DNA of 59,887 bases, the filler included, from Platydemus manokwari (Eukaryota), in the NCBI GenBank assembly GCA_037951405.1. It is 4 parts of 4 records of this genome, joined end to end, with 100 filler letters (N's around TTAATTAATTAA, not from the genome) between each part and the next. Parts side by side here need not be neighbours in the genome. Positions count along the whole stretch, not along the records: positions 1 to 17,101 come from JBBMOY011121440.1; 3 more parts are not named here. One strand, written 5' to 3'. Within the stretch, counting starts at the first letter, position 1; the number at the start of each line of letters is the position of its first letter. The position numbers and the translations under genes were made by a program. The notes under the pieces are model-generated. The model had not been told where the DNA came from, ran no database searches, and was given only the letters and a program-made list of their open reading frames with translations. Below, piece by piece: positions 9,251-54,900 of the stretch.

Positions 9251-11099
9251 AAAATAATTATTGATAATTCTTGTAACGAAAATTTTCTAATTTCATAATC
9301 ATAAATTTTTTCTAAGGTATTATTTACCATATTTATTTATAGTAACTTTTGTTGCTATTCTATTTTTAGACATGACGTAGCTTCTATTTATAGATTTAAG
9401 TTAAATTTTGTGTCCTTCGTCTAACATTGTGGGTCTAAACAAATGTTAAAAATAATTTGTTGTATTAAAACATTTTTAATTTTTTAATAAATTTTTTTGA
9501 GATGCTTCATTTATAAATTTTAATCTTTTAGATGCTTTTTGTGTTTTTATCTATTCATTAATGTTTAATCTTACTATTTATTTTATTGTTATCTATTTAG
9601 ACTTCTAAAAAAATTTTAAATATTATTTATTTTTACTTTCTAAATTAGTGTATCACTATGCCACTATATGCATTTGTATCTTATTTTTTGTCATAAATTG
9701 TTTGCCATGAATACTTATCGTATTTATGTGCCTTACTATGAAGTGTATGGACTTCACAAGGGTAATGATTAGTAAGTGCAATAAATGATATAATTATCAA
9801 TATTGAATTAATTTGATGAAAATCAAAATTATGATCAGATGGAAAAATAATATAAGCCAACTTTGTAGTGAAAGAAAAGCGAAGGAGTATAAAGTTTGAA
9901 ATATGTTAAATGTTTCGTACGAATTTTGACTAGTTTATGATAGGATAATAATTCATTTTATGGAAATATTACAACATTAATTACTATGAAAATATAATTA
10001 TTCATATTGGTATTATTCATCCGTGTTTTGAGTTTGCAGTGAATATTGTTTTTTCGTCGTTAAAGATTTATTCTTAAATAGTACATACTGTTGCGTTTAT
10101 TTGTGCGATTTTTTCCGATTTCGTGTCTGCTTTTATAGCATTTCTATGCATGCCTTGCTTATCTGTGATTGATAGGCTTTTTAAATAATAATTTATTAAT
10201 AATTAATTTATTTTTTAGTCTTGGCTACATATTGGTTACTAAGGTAGGCTGCCTAGTAGCCCCTCGTTACGTTAATTATCTTCCCATAAAACTAATTATT
10301 TGCAACAATTATTCTACTAGTATATGTGTTAAATAAATTTACTACCATTCTCAGATGTGAATGTTGCAAGTCGATTTCATAATGACTAATTTAAGTTTCT
10401 AGCTATCACCAAGCACAAAAATAATTTCTTGATTTTTATTGTTACCCTGTATATTAACTTCCAAAATGAATGCAAACAGAATTATTATTCACTCCATATG
10501 AATTATTTTATTTATTAATTACTATTATTATAGTTATATTATTAATATGTAAATGTTGTTTTATTTTAATCATCCTTTACTTATTATTATCCTTAATATT
10601 ATCCATTGTACTTTATTATTTTCCCCTGCATTTCCACAGCAATAACATGCATAAAAAATTAGACAAAAAGATTTATTAGGTGCTGAAATAAACAATGTAT
10701 AATGCCTGTTTGCAACCAACAAATTAAAGATAAAAATCATTTCAAATAAAATGTTAAATCTCAAAAATATTTATTAATTTATTGGAAATAATTAGGGTTT
10801 ATAATTTTAGCAACCGATTTTCTCTTTTTGGCGGAATTCTATATAAGAAATTTGAATCCTGAATTTGAAATGTTGGGTCACCTCTTAGCAGTATAACATA
10901 AAATAAAACTCATTATGCTTGAAATACAAATCTACAATGTGACTAAATGGAGGGATGTGACAGACTAAGTTTATTAGAATGCAATAATCCTTATTTTTGC
11001 AACCAGGTCTTCAATTTTGTTATAACTATGGTTTAAAAAATATTTATCATTAAGACAATATTTATTTATCAAATTTTTAACATCTTCATTTTCAAAATA

Positions 11100-11580
11100 T
11101 CAAAAATACTGAAAAAATGTGATTTAACACGTTGTAATGATGGTTATAATGGTCAAAAACTCCATCATATTCATTTTCAAACAATAATTGTTCTTGATTT
11201 CTATGTACATAAACGATTTTTCCATTATTGCTGGACAAACAGGCATTGTGAAATGCCAGGATGGCTATTGGGAGTATTACTGGCATTCTGCGCATTTGCA
11301 TTTTTGGTTGATTCTTGGTAGATATTTTCAAATTACGATTACCTTCTAATAATAATTTTAAATAATCAGCATTAGTTGGATCAAATATTATAACTTCACC
11401 AGCGGCAACATCTTTTTTACAAGGTCATCGAGTCTTAAAAATAAAGTCTTTCCGAAATTAGGTTCTCCATCGAAGATGATACTGTTGACAGGAATTTTAG
11501 GGATTTTCGCAAGAAATTTATTAGTGATCATATTCAACGACAGTGTACAATAAACTCATTATTATCAATAAACCAATTAA
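11100..11580 (-). pseudogene. NS1: Endogenous parvovirus/densovirus-like NS1 SF3 helicase relic (EVE)
   Basis: Minus translation KIPKIPVNSIIFDGEPNFGKTLF (Walker A, 11468-11445); then after a 1-nt frameshift DVAAGEVIIFDPTNADYLKLLLEGNRNLKISTKNQPKMQMRRMPVI (Walker B region, B' KLLLEG at 11358-11341, motif C), and a downstream WKNRL (Arg-finger-like). Order and residues fit parvoviral SF3 helicases. Confidence 0.8.
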
Positions 11581-11699
11581 CATAACTAACAAGTTTCTTA
11601 AACATAGCATCAATAGGAAGACATAACTAAGATTTATTATAATAAAAACTGATTAAATAATATAATAATAAGAACTGTTTAAATAAAGTTTCAATAGGT

Positions 11700-12750
11700 A
11701 CTCCATGCAATTCCTATTGGTCAATAATAATCATCCGGTTGGCGCTGTATTAAGTGGGACGGTTGGAAAATTACCATCCATACCCGTTGAAGCCTTTGTC
11801 GTATGGCATTTATTTTTCTGATATGCAGTTGGAGTGGCCATATTTATATTATCTTCCATCGTTGGACACACATGTTTTATTACAATCTTCTTTGCAGTCG
11901 AATCAAATTCATTTTACGTAGATCAGTTGTGCGTTTTCCAAGTAATTGTCCTTGAGCATTGTTCATGGTACTAACAGATGACTGGCCATTTACGATAGAA
12001 TTCAAATGAACATTTTATTTCCTAAGAAAATGTATATGTTAATTGAATTGGAAAACCATTAGCACCAACGTTTGTAATAGCTTTAAACAAAACATTGACA
12101 TGGGATTATGCTCACTAATATCGGACAATTGTAATAAATCATGAAAATCATGCCATTTAGATAAATAATCATAATCTACTTTATTGGCATTTGAATGCCA
12201 TCCAAATTTACCATCATTTCCATTTATGTACGTAAATTTGCAATTTGGCAATCATCTATAAAATCCCAATTATCATAGTAAGGCTTTGTACATCTAATTT
12301 TTGTAGGAAAAGGATGATAATTGCCTTTCAAATTATATATTCTGAAGCCATAAGGACCAGCTAAAACTGATCGAAAAGGCTTGAATCTCTTGTAATTAAA
12401 AAAATCAAATCTAAATAAATAAGAGTTAAATTTGTCTTAATAATATCGTATTGGTAAAAATCCGTTTCTTTGATTAACCATTTATCTAACTTTTCTTGTT
12501 AGTAAATAAAATTGACTAGTTTCCACTTCTAATCCTGTCATTACTATAGCACTTTTGATGTTTTTTTACAATTCAAAACTTACTGAATGATGTTTGATTC
12601 CAATAATTTTTCACATGTTTCCATAAAGATTTAGAATATACTTTATGATACATGTCCGCATGAACTGCATTTGATATTTCTAATAATCGTGTTAATATTA
12701 TTTTAAAGAATTTTCTTCAGTGAAGCATTGAAATGTGTTTATTATCTTGA
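11700..12750 (-). pseudogene. Probable parvovirus-like capsid (VP) relic adjoining the NS1 relic
   Basis: Frameshifted coding-like, GC-enriched segment: YHKVYSKSLWKHVKNYWNQ / IKSAIVMTGLEVETSQFYLLTRKV / ETDFYQYDIIKTNLTLIYLD / GPYGFRIYNLKGNYHPFPT / LPNCKFTYINGNDGKFGWH...HDLLQLSDISEHNPMSMF, followed by AATAAA (~11638-11633). Capsid identity is inferred from beta-strand pattern and adjacency to NS1. Confidence 0.45.
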
Positions 12751-15549
12751 AAATATTAATTACTATATGATATTTGAAAAGAATTTTCAAAAGATATTAC
12801 TCGTTATACTGATTTTTATTAAAATTGATAGTTAAAAATTTTGTAACCAAAAGGAATTTAATTTATTATTTCGAAACTGTTACATTAACTTTTTATCAGA
12901 ATTCTATTTTTAACGTTACAATTTTATCAGAAAATGTTGCTTTGATTCAATATTTAACTATTTTATGGTTATTGACAAGTACTTGCTACAGAAATAAACG
13001 ACAGATAAAAATATTGTTACATTATCTAAGTATACTAATATGCTACTGCACTATTTATAGCTTAAATCAACCTCTTGAGTTCTAATGGCCCTCCGGTAGT
13101 AATTTAGCTTTAATGTGATATTTATTCAACTCAACATTCAACTTATATGGAGACAACAAATATGATGTCAAATTTAACTTGGTACTTTCTTAATTCTACT
13201 GAATTTTAATAACAATTCAATTGCTTTAAGTTCAGCCTCTACTTTTATGGCACTTAAATATCAAATAAAAACGTAATGAATGATATATATTAATGCGTAT
13301 TCTTGAAATTGATGCGGAATATAATCGAATTCGTAGCTTCTTCTAAGTGCGAGATTGGTAATGATTTCTTAATGAGGTAAGGCTAAATTAATATTGTCTT
13401 CGTTTTTATCTTGCAATATAATAATTAATATTTATCAAATTATTGTGCTTTTATTAATAAAAATATTTTTGCACAAAATTATTATAATGTTCAATTTTAT
13501 TATTCATACTTTATTCTATTGGGTACATCATAAAAATAGGCAAACTACTTTGGAAATATGTTTTTTATCTTTGTCGCTGTTTAACTTTCAGGTGCTGATC
13601 CTGATATGTATTTATAACTCGTTTCCAGGACGTGATTGTTTGACGATTTAATTTTCTGTAAAATATTGTGATCATTAATTATAATTTTGACATTTAGCGT
13701 TAGTGAATATGTTGGCTTTGTATTTTATTAAATTAATAATATTTAATTTATAAATAGAATGCCAACAAATATATAAATAAAAGCGATATTTAACTCTAAT
13801 GAAAAATAATGAATAATATTTAATTAAAGATAACAATTAATATTACAATCCACATAGGCAAAAAAGCAATAATTAATGATTAGCTGAAACAATAACTAGG
13901 ATTTACGTAAGTTATATATGTGTCTGTTCCTATAATTAAATTTGAGTCTTCTGTGCTTTGACCTCAAAAGCCATTATTGATGAGTAACTTAATGAGGATT
14001 GGGTATATATGTACCAACAATTCCACTGAAATAGGTAAACGCAGTTAATTTAAGTTAAAAACATAAATTCATTAAGATAATATCAATTACATAAGTCATT
14101 TTAACAAACTTGAATCAGGTTAGATTAATATAAATGAACATAGGTGGCGTTGTATAGTGTTATATTTTCAATAGATTTGTTTTGTTTAAATATTACAATT
14201 CATTGTAATCGATTTATTTTCCTTGTAATTGGATTTCTTAGAATAATTTTCTTACGATTAACTAGATGTTTTAAACTAATTCTCTTTCGTCATGTCTGAA
14301 ATTTCCGTATCTGTTTTCGATCTCTCTTGCTATTTTTAGTGTTTTATCTCATCTTTCTATTTTAATATTTTAATAATTCTATTTTTAAAAAATTGCATTT
14401 ATTATTGTTTAATATTATTTCTGTCCAGGGTAGGCTTCTGATATTTAACAAATATCTTAACAATTCTACTCATTAAAATCAAAAATATTATTATTAAAAT
14501 TAAAAGTAACACAAATACGATATACATATTTCTCTATGTGTCAATTTATTGGTACTCCGTAAGAAATTGACTGTTTTAAGCAATTCTCAACAACAATCGT
14601 CTACGATTATTTAATGTTTCGAAAATTTTGAAGATGATAATAATCAAATTCAGTACAATATTTATTAAAAATTTTTGTGTTGGTTGATTTTACTAGTTTA
14701 CATTGGTCCTGGAGGTCTTCAGTAGCTCTTACAAGGACTAAGCTTCCGGAATACATACTGAAGTTATTTAAAAATTATTATTATTCAATTGATTGTTACA
14801 ACAGGGATTTGGATTAACAGTAATGTGTTGATTTGCATTGGGTTTTGGTAATTGAGGCTATAAGGCTTTGTGGCTTGCTGATTTCTGTGTTGCGCATTTA
14901 TAGGAATTGGTGAAGTGATTGTGGGTAAATTTGATTGGAATATTCAGAGAGATTGGAATTGTTTTTGGTGCTATCCTCAACAATAATACTTTATTAGAAC
15001 GTTATTTTAAACCAAACATTTTTTATTATTGTCAGTAATATTCGAAATCCGATAATGCTCTGGAATTCGTTCATCCAGGTGGATGATATGAGGAAAATTA
15101 AAATTTAAATAAATTTAAATGGAACAATTTGAAATAATTTTATAAATAAGCTATTTAAAAATCTTTTAATTTTCAATGTTTTAATAAATTGAAATTCTAA
15201 TTGATTATTTGAATATTGATTATGAAATAATTTTTGATATTTTTAATATTTATATTTTAATATTTATATTCCTGATTAAAGCTTTGTTGTAAATATTTGA
15301 ATTTGTTTAAAAATCTTTTTAAAATTAAATTTTTCGAAAAATTAAAAAAATTCTCCAAGATTAAGTATAATGAATTTCAAAATTTAATTGAAGCAGTTAC
15401 TACTAACAAAGTCAAATTATCTAATTGGAATTGTTCTGGAAGGAGTGAAATAACAAATCATATCAATTTTTGCAATATAATTGCAGATTAGGGTTAGTCA
15501 ATAATAAGAATCGATTTAAGTTCGACTTCTGGAAGATGTCAGCTAGAGT

Positions 15550-16250: not shown

Positions 16251-16548
16251 ACTATGTTAATTTATTACAATTTCCAAAATGTTTTCATTCTAATACTTCA
16301 ATTATTATTTTCATTATAATAATAGTCATAATAAATATAAATATATATTTTGAAAACACTATCAAACTACTGAATATTAAAATAAGCGCTCACGTGACTA
16401 CATATATTCGTGTGTGTAATTTGTTAATGTTATTTTTATTTGTTGACTAGAAATTTTATTTGTTGATATTGAAATAATTTATTTTAGAATTTTAATATGA
16501 ATATGTAATCATCTACCATATAATTCTGATTTGTTTTTATACATTAAG

Positions 16549-16699
16549 GCGATTCTAGAAGTATTTTGATCAGAGATAGGTCAGTTTATTTCACTACTGA
16601 AGATCATAAACCTAAAAATCCAGATGAAAAAAATCGAATAGAAAGAGCTGGTGGTAGTGTTTTATCAGAACGAATCAATGGTTGCCTTGGAGTTTCGAG
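16549..16699 (+). CDS. Internal exon of a protein phosphatase 2C (PPM1A/B-like)
   Basis: AG/GT-bounded 151-bp exon encoding (G)[50 protein letters not shown], containing the PP2C GDSR, DHKP..E..RI..AGG and RING.L.VSR motifs. No other catalytic exons found in the window. Confidence 0.93.
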
Positions 16700-17101
16700 G
16701 TATGGAATAATTATTAAAAAAATCAGTTGTGATTTTATCAAATAAGAATGTCAAAATAAAGAAATATCTTTGAGATTAAAGGAAAACAGATATGATTTTA
16801 AGATTATATGAGTATAAATAAAAACTCGAATTATATTATATCGATATTTCATTTGTAGAAGTTACAAATATTCTGAGTAGTGTTCCATTATCCAGTACAT
16901 TTAAACAATGGATTATATGTTCGATATTATGTTTCTCAATGACTCATTAAAATTTAACGGTTTAACTTCTTTTAACATTTGAAAATCTAAAATCTTATAC
17001 GATTGCAATTAATTGTAGTAAATTAACCGTAAAAGTAAATATTTGATGTTTTGATAATAATGTAATTTAAAAAGAATATATAAGTATAATAATAACGAAT
17101 A

Positions 17102-23529: not shown

Positions 23530-24567
23530 TCACAAATGTCTAAGTTCTCGTTCAAGACCATACATCATGGCTTTTAAATCTTTCAATTGAGCTGATAAAT
23601 GATTTGATTTTGTTGCAGTGTGTTTTACTTCACGAAGGATGGCAAGATCAAGATCTTGGGGCATGAGATTGGGCCCATTTGAAGAGATTTGGTCGCCAAG
23701 ACTTAAGGTTACCTGAATAAGATAAGTCCATTAAAGATCCAATGATAATGATTGACAAGTGACAAAAACGATATAACTAAACAAAACTCCACACAATACC
23801 TATGAAGATCTAGAAACCACCAATGCATCACCATGATGCATCTAAAGCGTATATTATAACAAAATCTTTTAAAAGCATGCAAAAGCAAATCATTTACAAA
23901 TTACCGTATATAATTGCTTTTCCAGAGTCTTCAATTTCTTTCTTAAATTTGCAATATCGGTTTGGAAACCTTGAACTTCAAGATTTCGTCGACGTTCGAG
24001 ATCTTTGTATCGTTGATTCATCATTTGTAATCGATTGTTGATTTTCATTGATCTATTTTTATAAATATCCTTAGTAGCATCGCCTTCTTCTCGAATTTGA
24101 GACAATTCATTCTCCATTTCAATAACCTTTTTATAAAGACACAATTCAATGGTGATGGAGAAATATGTTATTGGTTCATGATTACTTGTTCACGATACAT
24201 TTCAGACATTTTCTGTTGCTGTTCAAGCTGATATTCCAAATTATTAATTGTATTCTTATATTGGGCTTCTTTCTGTTCTTTCATTTGTCCAGTCCATTCA
24301 TTCCAAGCTTTACCTTGCAAACTTGTTGGATCAGTGATGATCAGTTTATTATTTGGATCTATTATTATTTAATAAGCTGATAATTGACAATAATTTAATA
24401 ATTCAATCAATCTACTGCCGCTTCCTATTGATGATTCTTTGACCTTTAATCTTCTAAACAATGAATCTTTCTCTGATATCCAATGTTTCTCATTTTCTCG
24501 ATATTTACTTCGTTGAGAAAGAAAATCTTTCGTATTTTCATATAGTAGTTCCTGGGTTCGTTTCAAT
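23530..24567 (-). CDS. CCDC77: Coiled-coil domain-containing protein 77, last four exons
   Basis: Exons 24567-24416, 24358-24186, 24126-23905 and 23712-23530 (TGA), all GT-AG and phase-compatible. Encodes TQELLYENTKDFL...EKHWISEKD...MSEMYREQVIEMENELSQIREEG...RYKDLERRRNLEVQGFQTDIANLRKKLK...DLAILREV...LKAMMYGLERELRHL*, closely matching the CCDC77 C-terminal half. 5' exons not found before the spacer at 29560. Confidence 0.93.
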
Positions 24568-29659: not shown

Positions 29660-30896
29660 GCAAAACTCACGTGAAAATTGTTCACATTTCAAATTGAAAT
29701 TTAAGATAAAAATTGGAAAATATGAAATAAATTTCATATCCTAGGTTAGAAATATGAAATTTTAGAATTCTTGAATAAATGGGCGAAATTTAACTGAAAA
29801 ATGTTTGTATTTCAAATTCGAAATAAAACAAATTGGATAAAAATCAATAAATTTATATACTAAGCAAGATAACATGAAATTTTAGAACTCAGGGGAATAA
29901 TGGCAAAAGTCTACATGAAAACATTGGCAAAACTCACGTGAAATTTTTTCACATTTCAAATTGAAATTTAAGATAAAAATTGGAAAATATTAAATAAATT
30001 TCAAATCCTAGGCTAGAAATATGAAATTTTAGAATTTTTGAAAAAATGGGCAAAACTCACGTGAAAAATGTTCACATTTGAAATTGGAAAGAAAAAAAAT
30101 TGGATAAAAATCAATGAATTTCATATCCTCTGCTAGAAATATAAACTTTTAGAATTCATGAAAAGATGGGTAAAATTCACGTGAATAATGTTCACATTTC
30201 AAATTGAAATTTAAGATAAAAATTGGAAAATATTAAATAAATTTCATATCCTAGGTTAGAAATATGAAGTTTTAGAATTCTTCAATAAATGGGCAAAACT
30301 GAACTGAAAATATTTGTATTTCAAATTCGAAAGTAAAAAAATTGGATAAAAATCAATAAATTTATATACTTAGCAAGAAAACATGAAATTTTAAAATTCA
30401 TGAAATCATGGGCAAAACTCATGTGAAAATTGTTCACATTTCAAATTGAAATTTAAGATAAAAATTGGAAAATTTGAAATAAATTTCAAATCCTAGGCTA
30501 GAAATATGAAATTTTAGAATTCTTGAAAAAATTGGCCAAACTCAACTGAAAAATGTTCACATTTTAAATTCGAAAGAAAAAACGTGAAAAACCAATTAAT
30601 TTCATATCCTAGGCAAGAAAACATGAAATTTTAGAATTCATGAAAAAATGGGCAAAAGTCAGGTGAAAAATATCCACATTGCAAATTCAAATTTAAGATA
30701 ATAATTGGAAAATATGAAATAAATTTCATATCCTAGGCAATAACTTTTAGAATTCATGAAAAATTGTGCAAAACTCACTTGAAAAATGTTCACATTTGAA
30801 ATTCGAAAGAAAAAAAAGGAAAATATTAAATAAATTTCATATCCTAGGCTAGAAATATGAAATTTTAGAATTTTTGAGAAAATGGGCAAAACTCAA
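29660..30896. repeat. Tandem satellite, ~120-bp monomer with alternating A/B subtypes
   Basis: GGGCAAAACTCACGTGAAAA-like anchor recurs near 29660, 29782, 29901/29926, 30048, 30168, 30291, 30411, 30533, 30650, 30767 and 30884; the ATTTCATATCCTAGG...TGAAATTTTAGAATT core recurs in each unit. The array runs into the spacer. Confidence 0.95.
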
Positions 30897-32110: not shown

Positions 32111-35100
32111 TCATCTAAATTTGTCTTCGTCTGATTCTATTCCATGCCCGTTGGCACGACCAGCTCTGATTTCGAGAATTTGTTTTTCAACGTATTTAAT
32201 TTTATCCTTTACATCGAGAAAATTAAAATGAGTTTGCCTGATAACGGATTCGAGGATCTTAAATTGTGAAACATAATCAATAAAGATAAATGTTATAAAT
32301 TTTATGCCATACTTTTACTCTTTCTTCAGGAGGTAACTTTTCCAGACCAACGGGAATAAGGGAAGGATGTAATCTTTGAAAGGGGCGACCGGAAGGTCTA
32401 TGAGTGCTATTGACAAAACTGAGATTATTATTATCTATTGCAGCTGATTGATTTATTGCCGGGTTATCAATATTAGGAACCATAATTGATCCTGCAGTTG
32501 TTTCACCATTGCTATCTTGATAGCCACCATCTGCGCTACTCGTACTCATGGAATTCCGATTTTTACGACGAGATTTAGGCCTCCTACCTTTGTGGCTATG
32601 TGAGGTCGGTGTACCCGTTGCTAATGGTATCATTGATGATGGTCGAATATCAATGGGTAATACAGTCGGTAATTGGAAAGCACTATCATCTTGTGATGTT
32701 TGTGAATCATCTTCGAATTGCATTGAATTATCATCAATGGTGTTCTGAAATAAATCAATTCTCACATAACTCTTTCATATGGCAAAAATCCAATGTACGC
32801 GATATGATATAATAGAATAATTTTTAAACCATAAATAACTTAAGAATGAGTGTGTTGCTTGAATAAAAGATGAAATAATGGGATAATTCATACCACAAAA
32901 CCTTAATATACCAACTTTTTTAAAATAAACAGGCAAAATTTAATTTATTGATTAAATATTTAGAACCAATGAAATCATAATCAAATAAAAAATTAATCCA
33001 TAAAGCATGACTTGAAATAGTGTTCCAAAAGACAAGTTTATCACCTTACCTGATCAGAAATAGTTCTCAACGACCTCGTCACCCGACGTCCGTGTGCAGA
33101 CCCACTATGTTGTGAAGAAGTGCTTTCAATTTCGATAATATCTGTTCGATTTTCTCTTTGCTTTGCATGTAGAGTTCCACCACTCGGTGGTTTTTTATCT
33201 GGTCGAAATAATGGTTTTCTACCTCGTTTATTTCCGGTTTTACCCGTGTTTGGTCTTACAACAGCTGGAGGCGATTTTTCTGAATCTTCATTGGGAGAAA
33301 TATAAAACAGGGATTGATCTTGTTCAGATCTGAATGGCAAAGTTGAAGCATCACTAAGAGAATCGTTTGAAAATGAAGGACTTCTGATTCCTAAAATCAT
33401 GTTAATAATATTTAAGTGACGTGCTTCGCTCACTTTCGGATTGAAAATAGTCATCTTTAATATCTTCACTTTCATCTTTCAACGTGATGTTTTCATTTTT
33501 CTGAATTATGGCGCAAGTATTGGGACAAAAATTAGAATCACTGGGTTGTTGATTGGAGGTTTCAACGGTTAACTCAAAACATGGGGATGAAATTTTTATT
33601 TCTTCTTTAAATTCCACTTCAAACATTTGTTGGGTTTTAATGGTCTCCTCGTGCTTTAAACGTTTAGGTGGCATGGACATCTAATTGATAAAAATAAAAT
33701 AATAAACAACCAGCCAAAAGGTAAATAATTCCATTCAATAACGTTTAAAGGTTAATAAAGTAATTTACAATTAATTAAGTTGACTGAATAGTTTAATAAT
33801 TACTTTCTATAATTCACACTCATACACTACCATCATTATATTTTGCGTAATCTTTTGCCTTGTTTATATAAACAAACGATAAAGCGCATAATTGAAGAAT
33901 TATTTATACATAATATAGAGTCATGCTTTATAGAGAAATAAATATAAAGAAATTATTTTTAAATAATATGTTTTTACATTATCATAATTAAATCAATCAA
34001 ATACCGTTTATTATTTTTTAAACGAATATATTCAAATTTTTTTATCAGTTTTCATTAAATAATTTCAAATAAATTCTCATTTGCAATTTTGAATATTGGT
34101 CTGATATAAACAATTTTTTTTAATTAATATTTTTACATTTGCATAATAAAAAGATAATTTATTTTAAACCCAAATAATATTTATATCAATGTTCCAGTAT
34201 TGTAATTGATGAATTAATACAACAAATAATAATCTTTCATAATAAATTCTCAGTTAATATAATTCAATCAATCATCGATGGTTGATATTTATTGATTTTA
34301 ATTCTTTTGTAAGATTAACAGTGATAATTTTGTGATTATTGATTATTGGAATCCGATCAATAAATAAAAATGATTTCATTGAATTTGATAAAATATAAAT
34401 GAAAATAATATTTATAAATTTGAGAAAATTTCCCATTATCAACGATGTAAATATTATATTTCCCATCTTTAGGGATTATCATCAAAAAACTATTAAACAA
34501 ATGTTATAATCATTAAATTTAAAATAATTATAAATATTTATCACAATTTACAAAGACAGATTGTAAGATAATCACCTTGTCACCGACTTTATACAAATTG
34601 AGAGAAGCAATGAATCTTGATTCAGGCAAAATTGGTAGCTTTTTTATTGAAGAATTTTCAATATCAGCGAAACAAACACTTTTTGATCGTCTTCGTTTGA
34701 GATTGGCTAAAAATGATCAACCAAATGTTCTGTATAAATTCAAATATAAAATTACTTGATTTGACAGATTTTATTTCTGAATGAACAACAGTCACAGGTT
34801 CTGGGTTTGGTTCAAGATTATTTTCATTAGTTTCCACTGATAATAATATATTCAATATATACACACATATAGATATATATATATATTGTTGATATCAATT
34901 AAATTAAATACATTAATTAATTAAAAATCAAATTGAAATAGAACTTATGATTGAGATTCTTGTCAAAACAATATCCCAATAAAGGCACATTTAACAATGA
35001 TTTTTCAAATATTATTAATAATTCAAATATAAATATGAATTATAATTAATATATTGTTGTTGTTAGAGGTCTAGGTTAGAATTAATTCGATCACAGATTA

Positions 35101-38100
35101 ATATTGGTATAATAATGAGGAATTAATCAGGATAGACATTAGAGACAAATTCAGAATTTAACTCAAAAATCATTCAACAGCCATTGATTTATGATAAATG
35201 TTTGAATATCAACATTAATTTTACACTGCACATTTTGACATATTGATTTATTGGAAAAATAAATGAAAAACAAAAGTATTGATAAATGATTGTGATTCAT
35301 TGAGCAGAGATATGAATGGGTTTATTAAATATGATTAAAATCAAATACAAATGAGTATTGAAATATGAATAAAAATGAAATAATCACTTGGTTCAATCAA
35401 GTTTTCCGATGGAATAATTGGATCCCGATTCTGACATTCCGAATGAGATGGTTCGATCGGTTCATTGACTGTCAGATCAGTAAATGATTCATTTGGATTA
35501 ATATTTATTATTTCTGATGTCTGTTCTGTATCAGAAATCGTCGGTTTCTGTCGACATGATGATGAACAAGTAGATTGATTATCCATTCCAGTGTCGGTAA
35601 TAATTCCAAGAATACGTTCAGGAGAAATAATTTCATCATGTCGACTATTCCAACCAATATAATGAACTTTATAAAATGTTGAACTATCGATTTCAGATTT
35701 CAAATCATTGTTGACACTGCTTGCCGAATCAGCATTTGATAATGTATCCAAACTCATTCTTTGATGTTTCGATGTGGTTTTCGAATCGATTGATTGGGAT
35801 TTTAAGGATTTATTTTCTGGGGAATGTTGTTGAATGATTTTAGCTTTATAAACCTTCTTGTCACCATAAGCAACAGATACAATAGTTCCCGGTGATAATC
35901 GATTAACAGAAGTTGTTACAATCGATTTACATTCACTATCTCCATCAACTGCTCGATCGAATACTGGTTTAGGACTACTGGAACATTGGCTAAGCTGTGA
36001 TGTGTCTTCAATGAGACTGTTTGTACCAATTTCATCACCACTAACACCAATATCTGTTGGCCTTTCACAGACTGATTGTGATGACACAGAATGTGCTTCG
36101 ATAGGTTTTCTGTTAAATTGTCTGACGTATTCCCTTCGTTCACGAGCTGAAAGAAGTGGTCTGGCTTTTTGATTAATATTTATCGGTTTGTCAGCGTGTT
36201 TCCTGTTTCTAGATTGTTCAAAAGTCCCAAGTTTCTTTTTCATGTCAACATACGGATAAATAAACCTAATAAATCATTAATTAACTGGTTAATATTTTTA
36301 TTAGTTTGTACCAAATTTTAGGAAAAAAATCTCACTTTTTATATAGAGTTTGCAATCTCTGATAATTATCACTGCTGCAATGGGGCAAATTCAACAAATA
36401 ATAAATGTGTGGCCATCGAACGCTAGTATTAACTTTCTGAAAGCCACCGAAATCTTTGACAAACTCATATAACTGATAGATGTCAACATCAGTTCCTTGA
36501 ATTTCTAAACCATGATTGATTGGACTACCTTTATCTTCCCAAAACCCATAAAATCTTGCTACCCATTCATCCTTGGCATTTTGATACTCTTGATCGGATG
36601 AATCTGATTTATCGTGATCAGGATTTCTTTCATCACATGATGATGAATCTAAGGAACTGAGACTATTAGTCAATGATGAATGCAATCGAGATTTAACAGA
36701 TTTCATATTTGTTCTATCGCTACTATCAAAAACTGGATATTCTGCACTGTAAAGTAATTTATCAGCATCCCAAAGATCAGGGAATATCTTTGCGTCGAGA
36801 AATAATAAGCATTTTTCCACATAAATATTCGACTCCGGATCTGATTCTTTATGCTTGATAAGCATATCCCTTTTAACAACCAAATCCAAATCCCTCTTAT
36901 ATGATACATACCTGTATGATATATTCCAGTGACTTATATTGATAATAAAAACAATCATTACCAAAAATTATCAACGAATGATTTCACAACACATTGTGTG
37001 CTTTTCACATCAGGATTGCTTTCGTCAATACATGATGACGGTGAGACAATAAGTCCCACAAATGGTTTACTTTTTCTATTTAATTTATCATTAGATAATG
37101 AAGCCAGTTTTCTAATAACTCTATTGACAATTACCAAACAACCAATATGATATTTTGTATTGGCATGTTTCTTAAATTTGGTCCTTAAATTATTAATAAT
37201 AATCAATCAAATTATTATCAGTTATATAATTAATTATAAACATATTTATAACATCAGGTTGGATATAAGGGAGAATACGATTGAAACTTAATGAAAAATC
37301 GCATTTTGATCATAAATTACAAAAAACAGGTTTCGACAAAACACCAGGTCAAATAATCTAGTTATAAATATCATAATGTATAGCAATCCATTAGATAAAT
37401 ATTCCCAATTATTAACTATAAACATATATCAATGTCAAATAAGAAAAATATTTCTTGTGTTGAAAGTGCAATGAAAAATCAAACAAAAATCCCAACAACA
37501 ACAATCAATGAACACTATTTGTTATTGATTTAAGGTCAATTATTAAATTAAAATCTACTAAATTGACACCAAATGTTCATGAATTTATGAAGTATTGGAA
37601 ATGAAATACTCCAGGACTGTCGAACCAAATGAATCCATATCAATTTGTCGATTTGAACTTTAAAAGGAAATTCTTGAATATTTTTAATTATAATTGCTTA
37701 TGGCAAATTATCATCGAAAAAGCTGCGATAATCATTGATATCACAAATATAAACTATAAATTATCGGTTATATTCAAACTATTTATTTGATTTTAAACAC
37801 ATTTAAATGAATTAAGATACTCCGAAAAATCAAATCCTCAAGTACTTGACACGTATTCCCGGATTAATTGAAAGAGAAACATCAACTGAAGCATTAGAAT
37901 ATTTACTTAGAAAATGTAATTTATTGTGATAAACATTATTTTCAGAAAAAACAAAACAATTATTCACAAATGAAATTTGAAAAGAAAATAATGAATTACT
38001 TAAATTATAAATGAAAATCTATTCATAAATTTAAAATTAAACTAAAACGATTAGAAAATTAAGAAAAATTACACTTTGTTGATGGGTGTTTTATTAACTT

Positions 38101-38850
38101 CATCTGATGTTTTCGCTGTCAGGCTACTACCAGCAGTTCCAACTGATGGGGACGATGTATGCGTTTGTTGTCTACGAGTCTTATTACTCGAGACTGTTGT
38201 TAAAGACTCTTCACTGCAAGACTTTTGATCATCATTATCGAATTCATCGTCTTCAGCACTACATACATAATATATAATATAAATAGATAATTTATGAGTA
38301 TAAATACTCGGATTTATCTTTTAATCGTTTGTCATAAATGACAGCTTTGGTAAAGTGCTCTGGATTAGTTAAAGGATGTTGATCTAAAGACTATTTAGAT
38401 GTAAACTTAAAAACGATGAATATATTGTCATTACTTCACTCTCTTTATAATGTCGGTCACCTTTCAATACTAATTGATTGCGACGTAACTTCCCAGTATC
38501 ACCATCATTAAAAACTTGTAAAAATCGTAATTTAATTTAAAATAAAATAATTACATACCGACGTGATAGATACTATTATCCATAATTTTTAAAATCACAC
38601 CGTTAAGAACATCATGATGTATTTTAACTTGAACTTTATTATTTGCAGAAATATTACCAATTATATCTTCGGCATTTACTTTGATTGTTTTTTTATTATT
38701 AACTAACTGAATCCGACATAAAATTATCTTATCAACACTATTAACTATAGCTTCACAAAAAGCACCGCGAAATTTAGCACTTACAGCTGTCCCCATAGGA
38801 ATACACAATTTATCAAGATTATCTTCTAAAACTAAGTCTCTAGCGCTCAT
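32111..38850 (-). CDS. ARID4: AT-rich interactive domain protein 4 (ARID4A/B, RBBP1-like), complete 13-exon gene, 1231 aa
   Basis: Exons 38850-38559, 38514-38435, 38390-38308, 38258-38073, 37183-36962, 36911-36336, 36265-35388, 34836-34756, 34706-34576, 33680-33434, 33390-33050, 32744-32313 and 32257-32111 sum to 3696 nt and stay in frame. Domains: Tudor (GTAVSAKFRGAFCEA...VFNDGD..KLRR..L.LKGDRHY..SESLDQHPLTNPEHF), RBB1NT/PWWP, ARID (FWEDKGSPIN...DIYQLYEFVKDFGGFQKV...W...LQTLYKKFIYPY), chromo-barrel (VHYIGWNSRHDE) and a C-terminal R2-like coil (PPEERVKILE...). A few acceptors could shift slightly. Confidence 0.95.
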
Positions 38851-39866
38851 AATTATTAAATAAATTAATCATAAAGAATTAATTTGTATTTTATATAACA
38901 ATAATTGCTTTTTAAAACAAATCCAGTATTCATTATACTTCTTTATTTAAATAAACTCATCTTTTATTTTTTTTAAATATTATAGAATTTTATTTATTAT
39001 TTTTATTTCAAAGTGTTAGCTTAAATAATAAAATATAAAATATATAAGCCTTTAAAAATTATGAACAAAGAAAATAATATCTATTTTAAGATTCTCAAAT
39101 TTGATTTTAATTATTGTTATGATTGACAAATTTTTAGAATTTTTTAAATCAGAATAAATATACAAATATAATAGTAATATAATCTAAAATAAATTATTTG
39201 GTATCATAGTTGATATTTCATTAAGTTACCCAGAGTGATAAATTTGTTCTTCTGTAAATTTTAAGATTATTATCGCCATATATGAAGAGATACATGTCAA
39301 GGTTTATTTTTAATATTTTTTAAAAAGCTTTTTGGAACTTATTTTAAGAGACTGGAATCAATTGAAAAATTGTATTACAAATAATGAAAGACTCTCACAA
39401 AGACACAAGTGAATACAGAGAGGAATATAAAAGTCGTTGATAATTCAAATTTTTTTATTAAGAATAACGTGAGCGATGTTAAATAGGCTCTCATCTTTGC
39501 TTGAGATTTGTTCTATCTCGGCTGTGATTGTTCATGAAAGCAGATTAATATCAGTTAATGATATGTATATCAAAAAGATTACGGGGATAAATATGTATAT
39601 TTTATCTTAATATTTTAAATATATTATTATTTGGCACTAAGAGAACGTGCTATCATTAGATGTGTTGATTTCTATTTCATAAGCTGCGTCATCTATACTT
39701 ATGTAAATTTACAGATATATGACAATTTACTGATACAATGATAGACTATTAGAACCCCTTTATAAATTATTAGTCCAGAAATAGTTTTTTAATTTTAATT
39801 TCATTAATTAGTGTTGATAGTTATCAATTCACAAATAGAATTGGTGCACATTTAGAATATGCAACG

Positions 39867-51659: not shown

Positions 51660-51995
51660 ACAATGATAATAAATATAATTAATAATAATATCAATGATAA
51701 TAAATATTATTAATAATGCTGTCAGTGATAATAAATATTATTAATAATACTGTCAATGATAATAAATATTATTAATAATAATATCAATGATAATAAATAT
51801 TATTAATAATATCGATGATAATAAATATTATTAATAATACTGTCAATTATAATAAATATTATTAATAATAATATCAATAATAATAAATATCGTTAATAAT
51901 AATATCAATCATAATAAATATTATTTATATCGATGATAATAAATATTATTAATAATACTGTCAATGATAATAAACATTATTAACAATAATATTAA
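51660..51995. repeat. AT-rich minisatellite, ~28-31-bp unit
   Basis: About 11 copies of AATGATAATAAATATTATTAATAAT(ACTGTC/AATATC). Confidence 0.92.
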
Positions 51996-54900
51996 TAAAA
52001 TTAATTCTGATAATTAAAACTAATATTTTATAAAATATAATCAATATTTTTTATATGTTTACATAATTATTTTTATTTAAATAAATATATTGATCGGAAA
52101 GTGTTTCCATTCAAAAATAACCTCATCATTCGTGCTAGCAGGTATTTTAATAATTTTTTTGGGATTGGAAATCAATTTATAAAAGCAGTTCTACGAGGAA
52201 AGTTTTGTGATGAAATCAATCAATGAGATGCATTATTTATTTTAATAAAAAAGAGCTTATAGAAATGCACAGGTCGATTTATTGAATATCAATTAAATAA
52301 AAGATCAAAACGATTCAATTAACTGGTTTTGAAAATTCAAATACCTTAACACATCAAATTGCTGGCCTTCAAGGGTCACGATTAAACATGAATGTCGGCA
52401 AAAATCAGCTTATTTAATCGTGTTTTAAATCATTTTTCTTTCAACTTGTGTGTTGACTGATGAATTTCAATGATTATGTCTTGACAACGGTTATTTATTT
52501 ATTTATAAACATATTATTGGTACGTTGTAAGAGATAATTTTCTTTAAGTTTTGGTATTTTTACCGACTTATTTCTCAGCAATCTATAGAATATATAAATC
52601 GTTAATTGAAATTTAATATATAATAATAGATATCATATCTTTATAATTCTTGAACATTTGATGGGAAATAAAATCGAAAATGTCTTGAATATGAAAGAAT
52701 ATTCTTAATTAACAATGTTGACAGTCATCAGATTTCTTTTATAGTAATCATAATAATGGAATCTTGAATATTGTGATGATAATCCACGCTTAATATTACA
52801 GGCGTCACTGTCAACATACATCAGATATGTCTCCATTTTTGTTTAAATTTTTATAATAACACGGAATGGGTTTGGTAATGAAATATATATATTTACTCAA
52901 AATACATCTGAGAGCCTTGAAAATGATTGGAAATACCTTGTACAACAATTGTTGTCCATCATTTTTTCATTAATCCATGGCATCTCAATGATTTGTCGTC
53001 ATCAAAACGTCAGTAATTTTTTTGTATTATTAATATTATGATCATCAGACGAAACTTTTAAATTAAGAAAATTGAGATTTAACTTTTTGCTAATACTTGT
53101 CAATTTCCTTCATATATTTCCTTTATCTCGCTGAGTGGATTGAGGATTATCAAACATCTCTTCAGATTAGACCTCGAAAAGAAATTGACACGCCAAAAAT
53201 TTTTCGATTGGACCGGTGTAAATTAGTAATATTAACATCGACAAGGGCGGTTATCTTTGGAATCGTTACATAACTGATTAGGGAGATAAATATGCCGATA
53301 TTTTCCTTTCATCGTTTCAAAATCATTGGAACAAGCTATTGCTTTGGAGATTTGGATTTCAATGACAAGAATCAAGAACCCTTTGGTGGCAGTATCTACT
53401 TAACATTGGATTAGGAAACACACATGATCAATATTCGACAGATTAAATTAATTTTTTACTTCATAATAATATTTTTTGCCAATCATAAAAAGAAATCGAG
53501 ATATTTTTTTACGCCATCTCACATATCAGAAATATTCTCGTCTGGAGCCAAGACTTGTAGATTCAATGTTAAACCATACACACACACACACATAATCCAT
53601 CACAGTGTCAAAGGCTGCTGTTACGTCAATTAAGTATGACTTATAAAATTTTATATTTCTCTATCATTCATGTATTACTGACATGATAGTCCATCCAGCT
53701 AAAAATCATGTTTCATCACACTTATCGATTAGGTTTTAACTTTTAAGCTAGCATTATTCCTGATCATTTAATTATAAAAGGTAGACATTTTAATGTCAGT
53801 TGTGATTGAAGTAGACAAGAAATTCTAGTATTTATCATATATTATGGGATCAAAGAATAATAATCGATTAATATCTTGATTAGTTGGATCATTTACACTT
53901 TACCGTTTAGTATTTCAGGGCTCACTGGATAGGGTTTTGTTGGGATTAGTTAATAAATCCATATGAAAATGTGTCATCGATCAATAATTAATAATGTGAC
54001 TGAATTTACTGATTTCAAATCTCATTGAGAAGAGGAATACCAGATTGATACTGTTTGCGTTGTCCATGTTCAGAAGGATCTTGGCTCGTTAGCGAATAAT
54101 TGGAGTTGTGAGCGGACGATTTTAAATATTACTAGTGTTTCCCACATTGTGAGTGACTCCAAAAGTGCAGTAAAGGAGATAGTGGTAATAAATTGAATAT
54201 AAATCGATAAAAATAAATTAGATACAGTAATATAATTTTCGAATCAAATAATGTAAAATTAATAACAATAAATAAATAATAATAATAACAAATAACCAGG
54301 TATTTAATAAGTTTTTAATTTCCAGTTATTGTTTTGTGTGGGATATTAAGAGATCCTTCTGCGGCGAGCTGCAGGTTCTTTTTGGTTGATTTGATAATAG
54401 TTGGGACCTACTAGGTGTAAGTCTCTATTAATTAGATTATTCATTAAAATGATCGTTAGAAACTTCATTTAAATTGCTAAAAGATAATAATTATAACGTT
54501 ACTTTATTATGGCCTCTTTTTGAAAATAAAATCCGACAATTTCTGTCGGTAATAAGGGACTTTATATAATCCACTTGATTTTTCTAGTAATAACAGTGTT
54601 AATTGCGGGCGTCTGACTATAAATAATTATGGACGTTGTCTGACTTGCCATGGTTTCTTTTATACTAAGTCTCTACTTCTTTATATAAGTAATTATCATT
54701 ATTATTATTTTCACATTTTATCTATACTATTTTTAGATTTTCAGTTTCTTTGTATTCTAATTTTAGTATCTTTTAATTATTTATTCTATTTTTAGTATCA
54801 ATAAACTTTATTCATTGATTAATGTATTATATCTATTTTCAGAGGACCTGGAACCTGATTATTTTAAAAATCTTATATTTTGTTTTAATTATTATTTATT

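Follow-up and report, generated by a model that had tools for sequence, protein, structure and literature searches.

The question raised by this locus is whether a minus-strand stretch at about positions 11,100 to 11,580 of the window (the whole stretch of DNA analysed, 59,887 nucleotides with filler included), which an earlier note had read as a hidden parvovirus-like NS1 helicase, holds the remains of a viral gene, to which group of viruses such remains belong, and whether anything in them could still work. Our reading, to which we give a probability of roughly 70%, is that a broken SF3 helicase fragment sits in an animal chromosome, that it likely stems from the NS1 gene of an invertebrate parvovirus with affinity to the brevi- and penstyl-type viruses (Penbrevirinae), and that it is predicted to be non-functional.

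Both peptides quoted in the earlier note are present on the minus strand where it had placed them, and they belong to an SF3 helicase fragment whose Walker A block and B'-C block lie in two different reading frames. The first piece (A, 11415-11555, minus strand) comprises a lead-in, a beta-strand and Walker A, lies in a frame running from stop to stop over 11391-11555, and scores 14.4 bits on a profile of 159 NS1-like sequences and 11.3 bits on a profile of 20; its GxxxxGKT at 11445-11468 agrees with the SF3 Walker A pattern GxxxxGK[ST]. The second piece (B, 11263-11412, minus strand; 26.8 and 21.3 bits on the same two profiles), in a frame running from stop to stop over 11095-11424, comprises a degenerate Walker B, the B' motif KLLLEG (11341-11358), the signature KNQP (11305-11316), which 6 of 375 references carry at the corresponding position, and the motif C region (11275-11292), the full B'-C block covering 11275-11358; the order B' then C is kept downstream of Walker A. 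The frames change at approximately 11412-11424, where the place of loss is ambiguous and where a contig of the public run X1 shows neither gaps nor differences; motifs, motif order and frame change are read directly from the DNA. The remainder of the open frame of piece B (11095-11262) shows weak continued NS1 similarity, and some tblastn alignments reach 11116-11200 at 25-29% identity, which is not significant alone. A tentative piece in the third frame (U, 11537-11626, minus strand) resembles by eye the helix preceding the helicase core; this likeness is not significant, the piece alone giving -2.0 and -0.4 bits on the 159- and 20-sequence profiles and raising the first domain's score on a brevi-type profile by 2.5 bits, and its best 13-mer ranking only within the top 3.4% of six-frame 13-mers. 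The G+C content is 0.30 in the helicase and 0.25 and 0.21 in its flanks. An AT-rich 26-base tandem duplication at 11635-11686 separates the helicase pieces from the stretch upstream.

The references with which the locus was compared were of several kinds. The 159 NS1-like proteins, with soybean thrips denso-like virus 1 among their named members alongside proteins from Fasciola, Echinostoma, Dicrocoelium and Hymenolepis, consist of 146 obtained by searching 1.84 billion representatives with a profile (1754 found at E<=0.001, 150 of them listed) and 13 from another search; the profile behind the 146 contained two rows from the window, and the set may be biased. Motif scans supplied a further 112, 59 and 18 usable frames, which on motifs and contig sizes we take to be papillomaviruses, Parvovirinae and Densovirinae, respectively, and thirty metagenomic and four further viral loci were added; L210, L216, L239, L241 and L242 are presumably of chaphama type. 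An IMG/VR motif scan yielded four small parvovirus genomes (L014-L017); Pfam scans of three of these confirm Parvo_NS1, with capsids of IHHNV type in L015 and AdSDV type in L014. For the NS1 proteins of all four, the best match in the window is this locus, at E 0.88 with L015 and 0.011-0.015 with the three genomes of brevi type. The layouts of some contigs deserve mention: in L219 (458-3830) a capsid-like ORF, recognised by eye and with no Pfam match, immediately precedes a short NS1 of the same orientation, reversing the usual order, and L211, L217, L225 and L230 are contigs of 4-6 kb encoding an NS1-like protein with its helicase near the N-terminus, the three longer ones also having two opposite-strand ORFs, one of them capsid-like by eye, with no Pfam family in those tested.

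Against this background the locus stands out clearly. At E<0.01, 33 of the 159 NS1-like proteins match it by tblastn and 0 of the 159 match elsewhere in the window, and a profile of the SF3 domains of these NS1-like proteins gives 17.2 and 3.4 bits at the locus, the best other place in six frames reaching -4.8. When the pieces were read through with X at the breaks and scored on family profiles, with 2000 shuffles as control, the read-through obtained 41.1 bits on the brevi/penstyl-type profile, 20.1 on Densovirinae, 14.3 on papillomavirus E1 and 1.5 on Parvovirinae, against shuffle maxima of 6.3-8.9 bits for the four profiles. On the 20-sequence profile, whose references were found without window rows in the query, though partly via B'-C motif patterns, the read-through scored 30.6-32.1 bits (shuffle maximum 8.4 in 2000) and the two core blocks 36.7, the same two blocks from eight intact proteins each reaching at most 26.1 bits in papillomaviruses, 21.6 in Densovirinae and 27.5 in Parvovirinae. 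On this sequence evidence the helicase relic is real and beyond chance.

The damage that it has suffered is equally plain. The distance between Walker A and B' is 28.67 codons at the locus and 50 codons in 118 of 124 pattern-matching references (159 examined), a directly measured net shortfall of 64 nt, or 21.3 codons; the deletion that the earlier note had put at about 25 codons thus exists at a smaller size. The Walker B which that note had read is not cleanly kept, the EEP of the family being absent and two alignment registers being about equally good, whereas Walker A, B' and C are in place. One additional residue follows B', a spacing found in 4 of the 159 references, 124 having the usual one, and about 58 alignable residues remain. 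Full-length NS1 profiles gave no match to the HUH nuclease region upstream of the helicase, which may be lost or too decayed; no hairpin-like pair attributable to a terminal hairpin or inverted repeats was found close to the locus, nor was a capsid gene or a polymerase found at it. Because Walker A and B'-C lie in separate frames and about 21 core residues are missing, no working helicase is possible, and the fragment is predicted to be dead and non-functional, most likely doing nothing.

A single X1 contig of 2455 bases, covering 10549-13000 and thus the whole locus with AT-rich flanks on both sides, has a depth of 10.2 and 0 differences across the locus, seven other listed pieces having depths of 7.0-10.0; X1 is one run and possibly the assembly's own source, so that its support is not independent, and the copy number was taken from X1 contigs at a likeness of 80%, a source that can reveal further copies yet not prove that there are none. 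Since one contig spans the locus at the depth of its neighbours and the window holds PP2C and ARID exons, the relic is integrated in host DNA, as the earlier note had held, and is apparently single-copy, its physical link to the flanking DNA being directly observed. High-copy interspersed repeats flank it at 9335-9601, 13607-13873 and 15209-15475 (summed depth 227-536). The PP2C phosphatase exon lies at 16548-16742 on the plus strand (Pfam E 6e-15); no upstream PP2C exons were found by motif, which leaves the viral piece either an intronic or an intergenic position. A multi-exon minus-strand gene with ARID and Tudor-knot/chromo domains by Pfam extends over 32277-38868 (ARID/Tudor at 35-37 kb); we take it to be ARID4-like, and it is 72% identical to record P0192, the one close match of a host gene, while other ARID matches fell in generic clusters. 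A coiled-coil exon at 23893-24189 (minus strand) presumably resembles CCDC77, and tandem arrays, repeating every 242-267 and 31 bases or so, lie at 29660-30895 and 51661-52005. An element of this kind would have arisen when an invertebrate parvovirus infected germline or stem cells and a piece of its genome was captured in a chromosome, probably through DNA break repair; the captured piece would then have been inherited and have decayed neutrally by deletion, frameshift and substitution.

As to which virus this was, the top pairwise matches among 348 references are P0033 and P0015 at about 29 bits (best 29.3), Densovirinae reaching 18.4 and E1 15.5, and the cluster to which P0033 belongs also contains soybean thrips denso-like virus 1, which is filed under Brevipenbrevirus (Penbrevirinae). 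Together with the 33 tblastn matches and the 41.1 bits of the read-through, these matches uphold the central claim of the earlier note, namely that a disrupted SF3 helicase of the parvoviral NS1 kind is present, most similar to the brevi/penstyl type. Trees are less decisive. Grafting the 58 residues on 181 edges puts the brevi-type clade at a weight of 0.96, its sister clade with KNQP at 0.04 and the chaphama type at 0.0; an AU test over 58 columns and 13 positions, with 2000 replicates only, rejects two positions, the Parvovirinae stem (p 0.034) and the base of the brevi/penstyl set (p 0.008), and keeps the papillomavirus E1 stem (0.16), Densovirinae (0.053), penstyl (0.20), the chaphama type (0.086), flatworm positions (0.085 and 0.27) and the L225 type (0.24). 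Relative to the best position the log-likelihood deficit is 11 units for the chaphama type, 9 for the L225 type and 8-9 for the fluke/tapeworm NS1 clade. A tree search with 175 of the 348 references, from which domains shorter than 170 aa were dropped and in which E1 and Parvovirinae were subsampled, left the locus at the base, unplaced; a second one, with 92 references, disagrees with the first and sets it within the KNQP clade on a branch of 1.93. The second search, the grafting and the AU test all used these 92 chosen references, which are 41 hand-picked P proteins and eight per outside family, omitting L215, L231 and L017, and the locus masked to 58 residues. The NS1 phylogeny that had been proposed as a check therefore favours the brevi type by weight, while 11 of 13 positions survive the AU test and the tree searches conflict. 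One reference, P0014, named 'Ambidensovirus sp.' in its record, groups tightly with brevi-type NS1 in the tree, which suggests a database mislabel.

The composition of the locus bears on this placement, its share of AT-rich residues being 0.41, that of brevi-type proteins 0.33-0.40 and that of fluke sequences 0.24; the similar share could add an attraction of the locus towards the brevi type. Brevipenbrevirus NS1, exemplified by the P0033 cluster, resembles the locus in the residues of Walker A, B' and C and in their succession, with 40-43% identity over 58 columns, whereas the locus is frameshifted, 64 nt short, devoid of EEP and one residue longer after B'. The metagenomic KNQP clade (P0095, P0136, P0084, L233) shares with the locus the KNQP before motif C, and LRL/FRL after Walker A is common to the locus and most members of the clade; a profile of its eight full-length members, however, gives the locus 16.7 bits, versus 27.3 for one of 17 brevi-type proteins. 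Brevipenbrevirus (Penbrevirinae) would be the nearest named relative, a placement that is only favoured, the fragment being too damaged for firm assignment. The subfamily criterion is NS1 homology extending past the SF3 domain (PMC13426907), and genera are judged by identity over the whole NS1; of the locus, about 58 residues can be aligned. The likeness to Hamaparvovirinae seen in the earlier note holds in so far as the brevi/penstyl type is favoured, and its label is outdated, since Penbrevirinae was split off in 2025 and the remainder became the vertebrate-only Hamavirinae (PMC13426907, NCBI taxonomy), the chaphama-type group having a weight of 0.0. The suggestion that the lineage may be undescribed gains little from the long branch, which decay would lead one to expect.

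The alternative that survives best, though we consider it unlikely, is that the relic derives from an SF3 virus that is parvo-like but belongs to none of the named subfamilies, of bidnavirus type, of the metagenomic L225/L219 type or akin to the planarian elements PIVE and PEVE, the locus being less decayed than it appears and its distance, which we hold to be improbable to the same degree, reflecting real divergence. On the 20-sequence profile, intact brevi/penstyl-type proteins score 58-64 bits, bidnavirus-type L240 33.9, the chaphama type at most 36.6 and the L225 group at most 47.3; because intact outsiders thus score 34-47 and the locus 36.7, this profile makes a decayed member and a distant outsider look alike, and the score pattern of the locus indeed resembles that of intact L240. 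The helicase of L225 has the same GEPN Walker A as the locus and, within the metagenomic set, gave the strongest tblastn match (E 5.6e-4); the capsid-like protein of L225 is also what the upstream stretch matches best, in two collinear spots, though not significantly; about two-thirds of the parvovirus-like matches in the data of PMC13426907 are bidnavirus-like; and planarian elements with parvovirus NS-like sequence have been described, PIVE from Schmidtea and PEVE from Girardia (PMC3198968). Yet identity in the core columns falls from 40-43% in the brevi/KNQP type to 33-34% in L225/L219 and 29% in L240, an L225-type placement costs the 9 log-likelihood units given above (AU p 0.24), and the polymerase B of L240, identified by Pfam in this one reference only, has no match at the locus, all of which argues against this alternative.

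The upstream stretch just mentioned (11734-12716, minus strand) has short same-strand frames and slightly raised G+C and is possibly a second decayed gene. On a profile of 23 capsids it scores 2.2 bits, a value equalled or exceeded by 12 of 500 shuffles, held-out intact capsids obtaining 12-126 bits; its best match among 423 targets is the L225 capsid-like protein (E 0.93), one strand of which a motif in the stretch resembles, and HHalign against capsids gives probabilities of at most 0.24%. A capsid identity was considered and set aside as unsupported, the profile and HHalign results being at chance level. The combined proposal that an undescribed parvo-like lineage, either sister to brevipenbrevirus or outside the named subfamilies, left its helicase in a host group with no recorded virus of the kind, and that this 1-kb stretch is its capsid gene in an L219-like order, strikes us as decidedly doubtful.

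Very improbable, in turn, is a non-parvoviral origin, from the SF3 helicase of a papillomavirus-like or some other small DNA virus. The Parvo_NS1 model (PF01057), named in the earlier note as a check, matched none of 12 separately scanned locus pieces at E<=10, the sole Pfam SF3 match is PPV_E1_C on the Walker A piece (E 0.24), the AU test retains the E1 stem at p 0.16, and the Hydra element DENSOV_HM sits at the papillomavirus base (PMC3198968); true penstyl- and brevi-type NS1, however, likewise match PPV_E1_C, the 112-sequence E1 profile gives 14.3 bits versus 41.1 for the brevi/penstyl type, and at least 15 bits are reached by 1 of 112 E1 proteins versus 51 of 159 NS1-like ones. The CRESS-virus Rep family has no Pfam match on the locus pieces. 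The refutation envisaged in the earlier note, better matches to cellular, CRESS or papillomavirus proteins or no SF3 match, thus did not materialise for the locus as a whole; it touches only the isolated Walker A piece, with its PPV_E1_C match and a best PDB match to mS29 (E 0.006), a cellular P-loop protein of the mitochondrial ribosome. Equally hard to credit is that the host retains the fragment as a source of antiviral small RNA or for some other co-opted use: EVE-derived immunity has been suggested for shrimp IHHNV elements (PMC11357303), but the broken frame and deleted core exclude a working protein. Searches with piece B alone gave two PDB matches and one IMG/VR locus (L001), judged to be chance, and IMG/VR scans with the motif spacing of the locus returned 12 and 11 loci, none with an NS1-like frame. 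That the locus arose by chance in AT-rich DNA or is what remains of a cellular P-loop gene, as the mS29 match of piece A and the failure of piece B alone to match any protein at E<=10 among 58 candidates or to give a usable Atlas match might hint, is scarcely credible, being refuted by the shuffle and whole-window controls, in which two collinear blocks in correct order score 31-41 bits versus shuffle maxima of 8.4-8.9 and the rest of the window shows nothing comparable.

A relic of an NS1 related to the brevi/penstyl type takes its place among known elements. As the earlier note had stated, densovirus-like integrations occur in flatworm genomes, namely in tapeworms, where they are most similar to the NS1 of IHHNV and Aedes densovirus (PMC6880638), and across 10 flatworm species (PMC13055364); flatworm sequences have been linked to penstyl- and brevi-type NS1 (PMC10433990), and parvovirus NS-like sequences occur in Schmidtea, Hydra and an acorn worm (PMC3198968). 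The fluke and tapeworm NS1 elements (EmuDNV and its relatives; P0129 from Fasciola, P0090 from Echinostoma, P0140 from Dicrocoelium, P0139 from Hymenolepis), which the literature ranks nearest to IHHNV and Aedes densoviruses (PMC6880638, PMC10433990, PMC13055364), are the same kind of element as the locus; they are often multicopy, near-intact and arranged in concatemers with capsid and terminal repeats, whereas the locus is single and decayed. The flatworm-infecting lineage proposed in the earlier note is disfavoured by the 8-9 log-likelihood units that separate the fluke/tapeworm clade from the best position, although the AU test keeps that clade. PIVE and PEVE, the NS-like helicases of the free-living flatworms Schmidtea and Girardia, are likened to the locus by their description (PMC3198968). 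A literature search that covered few subscription journals found no account of this locus or of brevi-type fossils in planarians.

Fossils of this type have been recorded before from numerous animals, and the locus adds one more. One short dead fragment by itself neither dates nor defines a lineage, and screens such as that of PMC13055364, which required ORFs of at least 700 nt, would overlook fragments like it. Should the host be a free-living flatworm, or some other invertebrate that has seen little sampling, brevi-type parvoviruses would once have had hosts beyond the arthropods, and if it is a free-living flatworm, the locus would suggest a second lineage in flatworms, separate from the one that left the fluke and tapeworm fossils.
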